Shown piece by piece: positions 252 to 5,287 of a stretch of 5,287 bases of DNA. Made by a program: the position numbers and the translations under genes. Within the stretch, counting starts at the first letter, position 1. Each line of letters begins with the position of its first letter. The DNA comes from a virus (lineage: Duplodnaviria > Heunggongvirae > Uroviricota > Caudoviricetes), in the IMG/VR virus record IMGVR_UViG_2693429774_000006; one strand, given 5' to 3'. A model generated the notes under the pieces. It saw nothing but the letters and a program-made list of their open reading frames with translations, searched no databases and was not told where the DNA came from.

Positions 252-761
252 TCACAGCAAACCAAATGAAGCACCGAGGCCAGTCACGGTATCAACTGCA
301 CTCGCCATCGCAGGATTAGCCTGTAAACGGGCCTGCAATGAAACAGCCGCCAGCGCCATCAGTCGTGTTACAGAATTAATGCTGCTGATAGCATCACGAC
401 GACCGGCACAGGTTTTTACATCGCCAGACACCGCACCTGCAGCAACACGCCCGATCTCTGCGGTTGCACTCATGACGTAATGTGGCAGTTTCTCTTTTGC
501 CACCTCATTAATCGGAACACATGGCAGACAATGAATCTGTGCCAGAAAACCGTCTACCAACGTTGAATCTTCAGTCAGATCGGTAAGCAACCAGATTTCT
601 GGTGCGGTGAGCTGATGCGGTTGATCTGGATTGAGTTTGTTTCGCAGTGTCTGAACATTCATTCCTGCACGTTCTGCCAGCTTTGCCATATTGTGACGTA
701 GTGCAAAAGCTCTACAGGCTTCATCAAAATGCGGATGTTTGGAAATCTTGTAATCAAACAT
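252..761 (-). CDS. cII: Phage CII-like transcriptional regulator (186 CII / CP76-type)
   Basis: 169-aa ORF with start preceded by AGGGGG about 6 nt upstream. Length matches 186 CII as I recall it (169 aa), and it sits immediately downstream of the Cox/Apl-like gene in a 186-type early operon. Family assignment is from memory, not a search. Confidence 0.75.
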   Translation of the reverse strand: MFDYKISKHPHFDEACRAFALRHNMAKLAERAGMNVQTLRNKLNPDQPHQLTAPEIWLLTDLTEDSTLVDGFLAQIHCLPCVPINEVAKEKLPHYVMSATAEIGRVAAGAVSGDVKTCAGRRDAISSINSVTRLMALAAVSLQARLQANPAMASAVDTVTGLGASFGLL

Positions 762-793: not shown

Positions 794-1042
794 TTAGTCA
801 CCAACGATGACATTAAAGTTGAAATTGGATTGGCCCATGTTTTTCCTGACTTGTTCCTTTTTGTACTCAAGGTAACGTATACATACTCTGTCTTTCGATT
901 TTTCTTTTCTTTCCAAGAATTTAGCGAGTTTACCATTATGAATCATTTGATATACCGAACCGCGAGAGCGGCCTTCCCATTCCGCGAACTCAGCTGGTGT
1001 CGCCATCACTTTTGGTACACGAATTGAAATGTCGTTGCTCAT
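794..1042 (-). CDS. Cox/Apl-like excisionase and early-promoter regulator (small HTH protein)
   Basis: 82-aa ORF. The segment VMATPAEFAEWEGRSRGSVYQMIHNGKLA resembles the P2 Cox N-terminal HTH region as I remember it (…AIPYQEFAKLIGKSTGAVRRMIDKGKLP…). It is divergently transcribed from the CI-like repressor and is the first gene of the rightward-type operon, as apl is in 186 and cox in P2. Confidence 0.7.
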   Translation of the reverse strand: MSNDISIRVPKVMATPAEFAEWEGRSRGSVYQMIHNGKLAKFLERKEKSKDRVCIRYLEYKKEQVRKNMGQSNFNFNVIVGD

Positions 1043-1161: not shown

Positions 1162-1794
1162 ATGATACAAGTAAAAGCTGGCGAGAATACAGGGGGAAGA
1201 GAGGCTATCCATAGGCTAATGGCAGCCTATGATTTCAAGTCCAGACAGCAACTTTGCGATCACTTGGGCGCATCAAAAAGCACTATGGCAAACAGATACT
1301 TAAGAGATAGTTTTCCTGCAGAATGGGTGATTCAGTGCGCTTTGGAAACAGGAGTTTCTTTACTGTGGCTAACTACCGGACAGGGCGATCCAGGTTCAAA
1401 CATTGACCCTAAAAAAAATATCAATTCCGTGAACTCTAGCAAAGTTAAACCTCTTTCGGAGCTTGTATCTCCTGAAATTGACAAGGCAACTCTCAACGGA
1501 GGTTTGCTGATCGATGCTGGAAAAGCAATCATTGATAGCAGCATACTCCCCTCAGACTCAAGCAACCTGCTGCTGGTGACTACTTCTGGTGATTCTTATT
1601 TAATAGATCGCAACCAAACACCACCAGTAAATGGTACGTGGTTAGTGGACATCGACGGGATAAAAAGCATTGTAAAATTGACACGACTCCCGGGAAACAG
1701 ATTAGTAGTGCATCAGGATGATTCATCGTTTGAGTGCGAACTGGATGACATTGAGGTAATAGGCCGCGCACTGAAAATCATTAAGAGCCTTTGA
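1162..1794 (+). CDS. cI: CI-type prophage repressor (186 CI-like N-terminal HTH domain, with an S24/LexA-like signature in the C-terminal part)
   Basis: 210-aa ORF. The N-terminal segment …RYLRDSFPAEWVIQCALETGVSLLWLTTGQG resembles the 186 CI HTH domain as I recall it. The C-terminal part contains GDSY (Ser145) and VKLTRLPGN (Lys172), resembling the Ser/Lys motifs of LexA and UmuD. Its stop TGA (1792..1794) lies 1 nt before the integrase ATG. Confidence 0.85.
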   Translation: MIQVKAGENTGGREAIHRLMAAYDFKSRQQLCDHLGASKSTMANRYLRDSFPAEWVIQCALETGVSLLWLTTGQGDPGSNIDPKKNINSVNSSKVKPLSELVSPEIDKATLNGGLLIDAGKAIIDSSILPSDSSNLLLVTTSGDSYLIDRNQTPPVNGTWLVDIDGIKSIVKLTRLPGNRLVVHQDDSSFECELDDIEVIGRALKIIKSL

Positions 1795-1795
1795 T

Positions 1796-2809
1796 ATGAC
1801 CATCAGAAAACAGCCGAACGGAAAGTGGTTATGTGAATGCTACCCAAACGGGCGAGATGGCAAACGCGTACGCAAACAATTTGCGACGAAAGGCGAAGCC
1901 ATTGCGTTTGAGAATTTCACCATGGACGAGGTAAACAAGAAACCTTGGCTGGGAGAAAAGGAAGATCGGCGACACCTATCAGAATTAATTGAGCTGTGGT
2001 ATTCCCTGTATGGTCAAACACTCGCAGACCCCAAGCGACTCATGGCGAAACTTGGAATTATCTGTAATGGTCTGGGCGATCCCATCGCTTCAGAGCTGAC
2101 TGCCGGTGACTTTACGAAATACCGCGAAGCACGGCTAAAAGGTGAAGTGCGAAATGAAGATGGCACGCTGATGTCGCCCGTTAAGCCCCGCACGGTAAAC
2201 CTTGAACAGCGCAATCTATCATCTGTGTTCGGTACATTAAAAAAACTAGGACACTGGTCAGCACCAAACCCGCTGGCAGGACTTCCGACCTTCAAAATTG
2301 CCGAAGGTGAGCTGGCTTTTCTTTCCACGGACGAAATCAAGCGCCTGTTGGCGGCATGTGCTGAATCTCAAAGCCCTAGCTTACTAATGATTGCAAAAAT
2401 ATGTCTGGCTACTGGCGCACGGTGGAGTGAAGCCGAAAATCTGCAGGGCCATCAAATATCGAAATACCGAATTACTTATACAAAAACAAAAGGCAAGAAA
2501 AACCGTACTGTGCCGATATCTCAGGATCTGTATGATGAACTCCCCAAAAACAGAGGAAAGTTATTCACGCCATGCAGAAAAGCCTTTGAGCGGGCAGTAA
2601 AGCGGGCCGGTATTGACCTACCGGAGGGCCAATGCACCCACGTGCTTCGCCATACATTCGCCAGTCACTTTATGATGAACGGCGGAAACATACTGGTACT
2701 GCGTGATATTTTGGGTCATGCCGATATAAAAATGACCATGATTTACGCCCACTTTTCGCCCGATCACCTTGAAGACGCGGTGACTAAAAATCCTCTTTAT
2801 AATTTGTAG
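1796..2809 (+). CDS. int: P2/186-family tyrosine integrase (site-specific recombinase)
   Basis: 337-aa ORF, the same length as P2 Int as I recall it. N-terminus MTIRKQPNGKWLCECYPNGRDGKRVRKQFATKGEAIAFE parallels P2 Int MAIKKLDDGRYEVDIRPTGRNGKRIRRKFDKKSEAVAFE. C-terminal catalytic signature is present: ATGARWSEA, HVLRHTFASHF (HxxR) and MIYAHF (Tyr nucleophile). Tightly coupled downstream of cI. Confidence 0.92.
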   Translation: MTIRKQPNGKWLCECYPNGRDGKRVRKQFATKGEAIAFENFTMDEVNKKPWLGEKEDRRHLSELIELWYSLYGQTLADPKRLMAKLGIICNGLGDPIASELTAGDFTKYREARLKGEVRNEDGTLMSPVKPRTVNLEQRNLSSVFGTLKKLGHWSAPNPLAGLPTFKIAEGELAFLSTDEIKRLLAACAESQSPSLLMIAKICLATGARWSEAENLQGHQISKYRITYTKTKGKKNRTVPISQDLYDELPKNRGKLFTPCRKAFERAVKRAGIDLPEGQCTHVLRHTFASHFMMNGGNILVLRDILGHADIKMTMIYAHFSPDHLEDAVTKNPLYNL

Positions 2810-2821
2810 TGGAGACCTATT

Positions 2822-4342
2822 GTGATTCAAAAATTAGATATTCAATCTGATGCGGTTGCAAAGTTAAGAATGGATGCTATTCGTTCAGAAATCCAAGGTT
2901 ATTCCCCTGATTTATTTATCGAATTCTGTATGCAATATAACTTACAAAAATTTGAAGATAATATCCACATGTTACGACACATGCCTTGGATTGTTAATTT
3001 ATGTCTAAAGTGGTCTGCGTCAGTAACTGGCAAGAATAAAAAATTCAAAATCCTCGATAAAAATCAAGCAATAAAACTCTTCCAAAAAACTTATGAAACC
3101 TTGAACATTATTCCTATCGGTCTTGAGAGGAAGAATGGCATGCATTTCTTCATTAGAAATAATCTATACCAACAAGGAATCTACCAGAAAATTGACGCTC
3201 TAAACACAATTAGCAGACAAGTCTTTCTATTTTCAGAACTTGAAAAAAACCATAAAATAAAGAAAAGTTTTTTTACTATCACGAATGTATCTATCGAAGA
3301 CTTTCTTAAGCTATCTTACATATTAATAACTCACATAACAGAAGAGCATCCCGTGAGAAAAATGAATGTAGATACATTTACTATATTATTTGACATCATT
3401 CCTAGAAATACCATTGAGAAATTTCTTGATGCAATATCAATAAATTACAATGAACTATCTACATTTTGCAAATCAAAAACCTATGATAAACCTTTGCTTG
3501 AATACTACTCATCATCACCTTTTCTTGAAAAACCATTAATAAAAAAAGGTTCAGAGTATTTTCAGATACACACACAACTGACTTCAACAAGCATACAGAC
3601 GTTCATATATGATCTTTTAAGAAGAACTGATGCCGAGAAGTTCATGGATAGCTTTGGAAATGTATTTGAAAATGCACTGGAATTAATACTAAAAGAAAGC
3701 GAAATTGATTTTCATAACGAAAAATACCTTAAAGAACGACTACCTAAAGATAATAAAGTAGTTGATTATTTCATTCCACATACTGAGGCAAATATTTTCA
3801 TTGATGCTAAAGGCGTTGAGATACACCAAAAAGGCATGGTAACATTACGCCCTGAGGATATTGCAGGAAAAATAAAGAAATCGGTATTAAAAGCAATCGA
3901 ACAATCTCACGAAGTTAATCGAGAAATATACTCTAATGAGCGAATAATAGCTCCATTCAGGGCTAACTCATATATCATTTGCATTACATATAAAAACCTT
4001 TTCTTAGGCAATGGTAGTATCCTAGCTAATACTTATGCTAAAGATGAGATGAATAAGATATATGACAAGTTTAAACATAACTATCATATCCCTACAGAGA
4101 ATATTTTTTGTCTATCATTTGAAGAGTTTGAATATCTCATTGCATCATGCAAAAGGTTTAAAATTCCGCCTCATGAAGTCTTGCAATCTGCAGTTGAAAA
4201 GAACAAAAAACCATCAAGTGCTGCTTTCCTATTTTCCCACCATATAGAGGACTATTTTGATAGAGTAGTCAATTCAGTCATAGTCAATGAGGCAGGCATT
4301 AAAATGGTAGATTCTATTATCAATAAATTAAAGCCTGAATAA
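2822..4342 (+). CDS. Large hypothetical cargo protein (506 aa) between the integrase and the attachment site; candidate defence or lysogenic-conversion protein with a putative PD-(D/E)xK-like nuclease motif
   Basis: Uninterrupted 1521-nt ORF with GTG start at 2822 and GGAG at 2811..2814; it begins 12 nt after the integrase stop. Strongly AT-rich: hand counts of sampled 60-nt lines give about 23-35% G+C, against about 62% in a sampled integrase line. The AT richness makes long chance ORFs unlikely, since random AT-rich sequence is stop-codon-rich. Motif E283 (FENALELIL), D315 (VVDYFIP) and D328-A-K330 (IFIDAKG) has PD-(D/E)xK-like spacing. No Walker A motif and no family I recognise. Confidence 0.85.
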   Translation: MIQKLDIQSDAVAKLRMDAIRSEIQGYSPDLFIEFCMQYNLQKFEDNIHMLRHMPWIVNLCLKWSASVTGKNKKFKILDKNQAIKLFQKTYETLNIIPIGLERKNGMHFFIRNNLYQQGIYQKIDALNTISRQVFLFSELEKNHKIKKSFFTITNVSIEDFLKLSYILITHITEEHPVRKMNVDTFTILFDIIPRNTIEKFLDAISINYNELSTFCKSKTYDKPLLEYYSSSPFLEKPLIKKGSEYFQIHTQLTSTSIQTFIYDLLRRTDAEKFMDSFGNVFENALELILKESEIDFHNEKYLKERLPKDNKVVDYFIPHTEANIFIDAKGVEIHQKGMVTLRPEDIAGKIKKSVLKAIEQSHEVNREIYSNERIIAPFRANSYIICITYKNLFLGNGSILANTYAKDEMNKIYDKFKHNYHIPTENIFCLSFEEFEYLIASCKRFKIPPHEVLQSAVEKNKKPSSAAFLFSHHIEDYFDRVVNSVIVNEAGIKMVDSIINKLKPE

Positions 4343-4474
4343 GTCTCCCAAGCAAAACCAGTGGCGGCATTTTGGCGGCAGAGCATTAAAAATGCGTAAA
4401 ACAGACAAACACAAAATAATACTAACACACTGATTTTAAACATAAGTTCATGTTTTTGTTATAGTAAAAATGGT

Positions 4475-4519
4475 ATGTAGGAATTTCGGACGCGGGTTCA
4501 ACTCCCGCCAGCTCCACCA
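4475..4519 (+). other. Partial copy of the 3-prime end of tmRNA (ssrA), about 45 nt ending in CCA; att core repeat at the prophage/island junction
   Basis: ATGTAGGAATTTCGGACGCGGGTTCAACTCCCGCCAGCTCCACCA matches the 3-prime terminus (T-arm and acceptor stem) of enterobacterial ssrA as I recall it. Sequence upstream of 4475 has no resemblance to the 5-prime part of ssrA, so this is a fragment, not a full gene. Confidence 0.8.
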
Positions 4520-4554
4520 ATTTTTGATATATTGAAGTTCAGTGAAGTCTATCA

Positions 4555-4587
4555 AGCCCGCATGGAACCAGCCTTGCGGGCTTTTTT
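4555..4587 (+). terminator. Rho-independent terminator-like hairpin with T-run, downstream of the ssrA 3-prime fragment
   Basis: AGCCCGCA (4555..4562) pairs perfectly with TGCGGGCT (4575..4582) across a 12-nt loop, followed by TTTTTT (4582..4587). Confidence 0.6.
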
Positions 4588-4641
4588 ACGTCTATAGTAG
4601 TCTACCGAGAATTGCTAGAATCTACTCGTTATGGCACCCTT

Positions 4642-4688
4642 TTTGGGACCCAACACAAAGGGTCCAAAACATGAGGGTCCCAAACATG
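4642..4688. repeat. 10-bp perfect inverted repeat (TTTGGGACCC at 4642..4651 and GGGTCCCAAA at 4675..4684) plus a 15-bp tandem imperfect repeat (4659..4673 and 4674..4688) overlapping the P4-type integrase start
   Basis: Seen directly in the sequence. The tandem units AGGGTCCAAAACATG and AGGGTCCCAAACATG differ at one position and each ends in an in-frame ATG. Confidence 0.6.
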
Positions 4689-5258
4689 GCAAAAATCGCT
4701 AAGAAGCTCACTGACACTGAAATCAAAAGCACCAAACCTGCCGAGAAAGAGGTTAACCTTTTTGACGGCGATGGTTTGCTCCTGCGAATCGCCCCCTTAG
4801 CGAAGGGAGGAAAGAAAAATTGGTATTTCAGATATGCAGTGCCTGTGACCAAAAAGCGAACTAAGGTGAGCTTAGGAACCTATCCTCACCTTACACTTGC
4901 GAAGGCACGAGCTTTACGTGATGAGTACTTGTCGTTGCTTGCAAATGGTATAGACCCACAAGTTCATAACACCCACAAAGCCAATGCCCTTAAGGATGCA
5001 ACGGAACATACATTTCAAGCAGTAGCCAAGAAGTGGCTTGATGAGAAAGTCAAAACGTCAGGCATCTCCCAGGATCATGCTAACGACATCTGGCGAAGCC
5101 TAGAGAGAAATATCTTTCCAACGTTGGGTGATACCCCCATTAAGGAGATTCGCCCTAAAATGCTTAAACAGCATTTAGACCCCATAGAAAAACGAGGTGT
5201 CCTTGAAACACTTCGCCGCGTCATTGATCCTACCCACGTAATATGGACACAGGCCTAA
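4686..5258 (+). CDS. P4-type (CP4-57 IntA-like) integrase, N-terminal arm-type DNA-binding and SAM-like region only; apparently truncated
   Basis: Translation from the ATG at 4686 (MAKIAKKLTDTEIKSTKPAEKEVNLFDGDGLLLRIAP…WYFRYAVPVTKKRTKVSLGTYP…DIWRSLERNIFP…) matches the conserved N-terminal pattern of P4-family integrases as I recall them. Start is preceded by GAGGG; an alternative in-frame ATG lies at 4671. The frame ends at a stop at 5256..5258 after about 190 codons, and the other two forward frames also hit stops nearby. The longer 4542 start in the track runs across the terminator and is rejected. Confidence 0.7.
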   Translation: MAKIAKKLTDTEIKSTKPAEKEVNLFDGDGLLLRIAPLAKGGKKNWYFRYAVPVTKKRTKVSLGTYPHLTLAKARALRDEYLSLLANGIDPQVHNTHKANALKDATEHTFQAVAKKWLDEKVKTSGISQDHANDIWRSLERNIFPTLGDTPIKEIRPKMLKQHLDPIEKRGVLETLRRVIDPTHVIWTQA

Positions 5259-5287
5259 GCGAGGTTCTTGTTTTCAAATTGTTCCGG

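Follow-up and report, generated by a model that had tools for sequence, protein, structure and literature searches.

A gene of 506 codons lies between the integrase gene and the attachment site of a prophage in the stretch of DNA analysed here (5,287 nucleotides, hereafter the window), and this locus raises the question of what the encoded protein does and whether its function is new. A preliminary description, made from the sequence, had regarded the gene as an AT-rich, evidently recent acquisition and as a candidate novel single-gene system of anti-phage defence. We consider it very likely that the gene is gapS1, a single-protein anti-phage defence cargo in the slot between int and attR, and that the system and this location are both already known.

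The open reading frame (2822-4342, plus strand; the end coordinate counts the stop codon) has a GTG start and encodes 506 aa, and RefSeq gives identical coordinates for it in E. coli FJ_Ec_21 and E308. The long GTG start is supported by homologues that lack a Met at position 17 and nevertheless align with residues 2-16. The window carries a module of 186-type lysogeny genes, in the order cII, apl/cox-like gene, cI and int, followed by gapS1:

252-761, minus strand: cII
794-1042, minus strand: apl/cox-like gene (PHROG excisionase and Cox-like families)
1162-1794, plus strand: 186-type CI repressor (Pfam Phage_CI_repr and Phage_CI_C), the first gene of a presumed lysogenic cI-int-gapS1 unit
1796-2809, plus strand: 186/Fels-2-type tyrosine integrase (Pfam Int_N and Phage_integrase; PHROG integrase), directly 5' of gapS1 and co-oriented with it
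2810-2821, plus strand: 12-nt int-gapS1 spacer, TGGAGACCTATT, with a GGAG Shine-Dalgarno sequence 7 nt 5' of the GTG, as read from the sequence
2822-4342, plus strand: gapS1 (open reading frame; NCBIfam NF047931; RefSeq 'gapS1'; PHROG 14259; AF2 model with a pLDDT of 87.9)

Direct reading places the int stop codon TAG at 2807-2809, the GGAG at 2811-2814 and the GTG of gapS1 at 2822, in agreement with the earlier statement that the gene begins 12 nt past the integrase stop with its own GGAG. The annotation of the minus-strand gene at 794-1042 appears to be inconsistent, since RefSeq calls it 'hypothetical protein' or 'Rha family transcriptional regulator', as opposed to the excisionase and Cox-like families of PHROG.

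gapS1 is the last gene ahead of attR in a ~33-kb prophage of the 186/Fels-2 type (Peduoviridae) at ssrA. Over the window, the chromosome of E. coli FJ_Ec_21 shows 99.7% identity, and it has an intact ssrA beside smpB at the opposite end of the ~33-kb prophage. The similarity of SEN8, MLG42 and Cartapus to the window is lost at 4520, and the Klebsiella phage records end at 4474. The end of the relatives' similarity at 4520, together with the intact ssrA at the far end, identifies gapS1 as the last gene before attR, and the following features lie beyond it:

4362-4474, no strand: phage-side attP arm, 97% conserved in a sister prophage with other cargo, its end being that of the Klebsiella phage records
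4475-4520, plus strand: attR core, the duplicated 3' end of ssrA (tmRNA), with a partial Rfam tmRNA match at 4430-4519 and the sequence ...GGACGCGGGTTCAACTCCCGCCAGCTCCACCA

The core reads ...ATGTAGGAATTTCGGACGCGGGTTCAACTCCCGCCAGCTCCACCA, and the partial tmRNA match (RF00023) has an E value of 1.4e-9. With int ending at 2809 and the attR core at 4475-4520, the position between int and the att core given in the preliminary description is correct. ARAGORN reported no tRNA or tmRNA in the window, because ssrA is present as its 3' part only. A match to the Rfam model of IsrM, a Salmonella sRNA, at 4444-4587 was rejected: its score of 44.8 bits is below the gathering score of 376, and its extent is limited to the ssrA 3' end and a terminator hairpin (~4557-4587), so that there is probably no IsrM gene here. 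The match suggests that the ends of the IsrM model resemble ssrA-derived att and terminator sequence.

Downstream of att, a P4-type integrase gene starting at 4686 is part of a separate island. The window closes with 63 bases (5225-5287) that form the terminal part of an IS3 element, which has inserted into this gene (RefSeq start corresponding to 4686). The insertion introduces a premature stop at 5258, and the IS3 tail explains why the E. coli matches to the window all stop at 5224 while the tail alone matches thousands of genomes. Farther along the downstream island of E. coli FJ_Ec_21 (L001 12198-17224) are genes for a recombinase-family protein, two ParB/RepB/Spo0J-like proteins and a RelA/SpoT-domain protein, which may form a further module for defence or addiction. 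In the E. coli genome with the validated 77%-identical allele discussed below (L028 6885-11530), a P4-like satellite follows the prophage in tandem and encodes an integrase, a 913-aa protein with Mrr_cat and nSTAND1 (Avs-like) and Psu; two mobile-element defence hotspots thus adjoin at ssrA.

The preliminary description could match the protein to no named family and called it uncharacterised, which is contradicted by a full-length match to a curated model. Against NF047931 ('antiphage_GapS1', NCBIfam release 20), the protein scores 428.5 bits with an E value of 3.1e-128 (curated cutoff, 320 bits), residues 20-474 aligning to profile positions 1-455 of 455. Most current RefSeq records of E. coli with the identical gene name it 'gapS1: GapS1 family protein', as does UniRef. 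The single-protein architecture is also that of the family, whose representatives are uniformly ~500 aa long with one full-length match; the genes neighbouring gapS1 vary with the context and include no obligate partner gene. The family comprises about 1,550 representatives at the level of 50%-identity clusters, and a profile-based repeat of the homologue search yielded one weak extra match only. Pfam returned only a sub-threshold TPD match for the 506-aa protein, and PADLOC v2.0.0 (2023 library) returned nothing for gapS1. Both results are uninformative because neither library contains a GapS1 model, as fits a family described at a later date.

The GapS1 family goes back to Mahata et al., who defined it as a single-protein defence of the PD-(D/E)xK type (bioRxiv 10.1101/2023.03.28.534373). 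In that study, GAPS1 from a Vibrio GMT island protected E. coli from several coliphages, its PD-(D/E)xK domain was found toward the C-terminus, and the substitution D313A or K328A abolished the defence. T7 escaped the Vibrio GAPS1 through mutations in its capsid protein Gp10, and co-expression of GAPS1 with Gp10 led to a non-lethal growth arrest, a capsid trigger shown only for Vibrio GAPS1 with T7 Gp10. Three cloned E. coli homologues also protect, and for one endogenous homologue in E. coli native expression is sufficient for protection; at high MOI this homologue likewise shows growth arrest. For the cloned E. coli homologue genes, the first ~400 nt are available in the supplement of the study (10.1101/2023.03.28.534373). 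The fragment of WP_152927281.1 is 100% identical to homologue P0018, and that of EJP5250929.1 to homologue P0031. Over the full length, P0018 shares 77% identity with the window protein; the identity of P0031 to it is 58%. The validated WP_152927281.1 fills the same cI-int-gapS1 slot as the window gene. The founder from Vibrio parahaemolyticus (WP_005477165.1) is only ~24-29% identical to the E. coli homologues and is located on a GMT island, whereas the window copy is located on a 186/Fels-2-type prophage at ssrA. Like the founder, the window protein is a single protein of ~500 aa with a C-terminal PD-(D/E)xK domain, an identical 'IFIDAKGVE' block and the same 15-residue spacing from D to K. 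The window allele, which diverges by 23% from the nearest validated protein, may differ in specificity. GAPS1 is already among the systems that surveys based on DefenseFinder list for phage genomes, with Peduoviridae ranking first among the families in diversity of defence content, and the Phold paper displayed a protein of Klebsiella phage ST437-OXA245phi4.1 as GAPS1-like; this protein is 48.6% identical to the window protein. Our literature search found no biochemical target reported for GapS1.

Two groups of conserved residues were located in the window protein:

3155-3187, plus strand: R112-x4-Q117-Q118-x3-Q122 motif of the N-terminal domain (RNNLYQQGIYQ), conserved in family representatives
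3719-3820, plus strand: PD-(D/E)xK core, consisting of E300 (3719-3721), D315 (3764-3766), D328 (3803-3805), K330 (3809-3811) and E333 (3818-3820)

The five core residues are invariant in an alignment of 18 sequences. Among 180 diverse family members, D315 and K330 are each present in 180/180 and E300 in 174/180, and position 328 is occupied by D in 140 and by E in 40. The peptides DNKIQGKVV[D313]FLHQRNGT and NGTSIFIDA[K328]GVEPNQKI, translated from the published mutagenesis primers on which this equivalence rests, align to NKVVD315YFIPHTEANIFID328AK330GVE, so that D313 and K328 of the Vibrio protein correspond to D315 and K330 here. A search of the genome contigs with the Vibrio GAPS1 cloning primer sequence gave no match. 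In the AlphaFold model (pLDDT as listed above), the C-terminal part is predicted to adopt a restriction-endonuclease-like PD-(D/E)xK fold. Its best matches among solved structures include BspD6I, HindIII, Bse634I, Cfr10I and FokI, at the level of the fold with 6-14% identity, and NucS and the nuclease modules of Avs3, Can2, Card1, Shedu and McrC are matched as well. A family-profile sequence search of the PDB gave nothing meaningful, the best match being PilX (E = 0.12). Residues ~331-350 (~3812-3871), right after K330 and E333, have a pLDDT of ~55-57 in the otherwise confident model and may be a flexible lid or a regulatory loop.

The R112-x4-QQ-x3-Q motif is also invariant in the 18-sequence alignment, and among the family representatives with a residue at the respective column, R112 is conserved in 150/166, Q117 in 154/166, Q118 in 167/167 and Q122 in 153/167. 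Q361 is conserved too over ~180 diverse representatives. The main text of the GAPS1 paper contains no discussion of R112, Q117, Q118 and Q122 or of Q361.

The extent of the cargo was mapped by comparison with a sister prophage that carries a dCTP deaminase:

2794-4361, no strand: variable cargo cassette, delimited by blastn against the sister prophage (L003)

Homology between the window and this prophage covers 1-2793 (91%) and 4362-5224 (97%), with none in between, and in the slot of the sister prophage an anti-phage dCTP deaminase is encoded on the opposite strand (L003 4817-6574). Other occupants of the slot are a 331-aa protein with an HNH motif (L014 3362-4357) and, in the sequenced phage Cartapus, a 401-aa RES-domain protein (L015 4317-5522), which places the slot inside the phage genome; in Salmonella phage SEN8 and Yersinia phage MLG42 the slot is empty. 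The slot is therefore dispensable for the phage life cycle. These alternative cargoes and the 91% and 97% identical flanks bear out the earlier view that the gene is accessory cargo in a variable part of a 186-type prophage. The int-att slot has been published as a minor defence hotspot of P2-like (Peduoviridae) phages, with 3% of the systems in P2 (PMC13586616), in a paper whose main text does not mention GAPS1, and the main P2 and P4 hotspots were described by Rousset et al. in 2022 (PMC9122126). The window locus belongs to this int-att hotspot, and its cassette boundaries at 2794-4361 were mapped in this analysis.

The exact allele (at least 99.8% identical) was found in 15 of 5,426 complete E. 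coli genomes, with one copy in each, and a protein of 99.4% identity is encoded in 12 Klebsiella phage records. Divergent alleles also follow a 186-type int:

E. coli (P0018), 77% identical: right behind a co-oriented 186-type int, from which the same 12-nt spacer with GGAG separates it
K. pneumoniae (P0036), 49% identical: in the same slot, its start overlapping the int stop
Salmonella (P0033), 50% identical: in the same slot, after a co-oriented 186-type int
Klebsiella megaplasmid: also after a co-oriented 186-type int

The GGAG-N7-GTG arrangement is shared by the E. coli locus with the 77% allele (L028), and gapS1 overlaps the int stop in two Klebsiella loci (L004 and L016). The integrase proteins are 94-95% identical across these loci, whereas the adjacent GapS1 proteins are only 77%, 49% and 50% identical. 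gapS1 is under purifying selection, with a dN/dS of ~0.07 relative to the E. coli 77% allele. Outside prophages, more distant members (~28-33% identical) are present in Photobacterium, Nitrosomonas, Planctomycetota, Chloroflexota and other taxa.

The GC content of gapS1 is 0.314 (GC3, 0.278), compared with 0.478 for int and 0.439 for cI. The contrast noticed in the preliminary description is thus real, although its figure of about 62% for the integrase was overstated. The recent acquisition which it read from this contrast finds no support here: GapS1 genes have a GC content of 0.29-0.35 in all hosts and contexts examined, and the slot is shared by alleles of only 49-50% identity. Since low GC is a trait of the family and deeply diverged alleles share the slot, a recent arrival of gapS1 is doubtful.

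In phage 186, int is on the leftward lysogenic transcript (PMC7708051). This fact, the 12-nt spacer, the stop/start overlap in Klebsiella and the lack of an intervening terminator-like site lead us to infer expression from the lysogenic transcript, and co-transcription of gapS1 with cI and int is plausible. Promoter-like matches were at the level of chance (13 found versus 12 expected), as was the terminator scan. The dCTP deaminase cargo lies on the opposite strand, and read-through from int is therefore no general property of the slot. On the basis of family membership, the catalytic residues, the nuclease fold, the position, the conservation and the purifying selection, gapS1 functions in all likelihood as a phage defence. 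For the mechanism, we propose that the lysogen produces GapS1, probably from the cI-int transcript, and that its largely helical N-terminal part (residues ~1-295) would be the sensor or contribute to it. A structural protein of an infecting heterologous phage (the T7 major capsid protein in the case of the Vibrio founder) would be the trigger and would activate the C-terminal PD-(D/E)xK phosphodiesterase with E300, D315, D328 and K330. The activated enzyme would cleave some nucleic-acid target, and the cleavage would lead to growth arrest (dormancy) of the infected cell, by which the propagation of the phage may be blocked. Such a block would protect the lysogen population and with it the prophage. 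Protection, capsid trigger and dormancy are taken in this scheme from the literature on the homologues.

Three other explanations of the gene have to be weighed. The proposal of a genuinely novel, uncharacterised single-gene defence system has in its favour that the protein matches no Pfam family or PADLOC-2023 model, that PHROG 14259 is labelled 'unknown function' and that older RefSeq records give 'hypothetical protein'. However, the full-length match to the curated GapS1 model, a published and validated family, excludes it; the tested homologues are 77% and 58% identical, the current RefSeq name is gapS1, DefenseFinder finds GAPS1 in phages, and Phold had flagged the 48.6%-identical Klebsiella homologue. 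We thus give novelty next to no probability. Of the preliminary proposal of a novel single-gene defence, the defence part stands as by far the best explanation, while the novelty does not. Hardly more probable is that the protein is an orphan restriction or nicking endonuclease, or a DNA-processing nuclease serving the prophage in excision, replication or sequence-specific restriction without activation by a sensor. Type II/IIS restriction or nicking enzymes are indeed among the best structure matches and a Dam-type methylase is encoded upstream in the prophage, but the structural similarity is confined to the fold at 6-14% identity, and Dam is a conserved backbone gene whatever the cargo. No cognate methyltransferase, the mark of a Type II restriction-modification system, is adjacent, gapS1 being flanked by int and the att site only. 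Furthermore, the emptiness of the slot or its unrelated cargo in sister phages means that the gene is dispensable, and members of the family work through capsid-triggered growth arrest.

It could also be supposed that gapS1 is a decaying or silent AT-rich acquired gene without current function, such as H-NS-silenced junk at the end of a prophage, in view of its GC content of 0.31 against a background of ~0.48 and of the lack of a convincing promoter of its own. Against this, the 506-codon frame is intact with all the catalytic residues kept, the dN/dS is ~0.07, and the gene is near-identical in 15 E. coli genomes and 99.4% identical in 12 Klebsiella phage records. It is also tightly coupled to int by a conserved Shine-Dalgarno sequence or a stop/start overlap, and the native level of expression is enough for the endogenous E. 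coli homologue to act. We therefore regard a silent relic as highly improbable, and the identification as the GapS1 defence is preferred.

Compared with other single-protein defences, GapS1 resembles CapRel(SJ46) and Lit, which are encoded by prophages or islands and are likewise activated by the major capsid protein of the infecting phage. The effectors differ: CapRel acts by tRNA pyrophosphorylation and Lit by cleavage of EF-Tu, whereas GapS1 has a PD-(D/E)xK phosphodiesterase. Another relevant system is Upx (PDB 9wuf), an anti-phage nuclease with a dual PD-(D/E)xK arrangement in a single protein, which senses the phage terminase (PMC13099982, PMC13601566). With 1212 aa, two nuclease domains, terminase sensing and direct immunity, Upx differs from GapS1, which acts by growth arrest. 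The two are related at the level of the fold, with ~10% sequence identity and no sequence-level match, and are separate families.

The GapS1 system was published in 2023-24 and has a curated NCBIfam model, a RefSeq gene name and detection by DefenseFinder, and the hotspot was catalogued in 2026. The locus therefore serves as a calibration case, in which reasoning from context, from an AT-rich moron at a prophage end to defence, got the function right. One speculative possibility, which we consider rather unlikely, is that the 77%, 58% and ~49% alleles, which all occupy the int-attR slot of 186/Fels-2-type prophages at ssrA, form a natural series of capsid-sensor specificities which are swapped by recombination and tolerate the resident capsid, the kinship with Upx hinting at a single-stranded nucleic acid or a replication intermediate as the target. 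If true, the allelic series or the target would extend the mechanism of a known family and would not constitute a new system. The modest additions of this analysis are the cassette boundaries, the recognition that a validated E. coli homologue is an orthologous cargo of this slot, and the divergence of GapS1 at a far faster pace than that of int. These additions could guide work on the specificity of the sensor.
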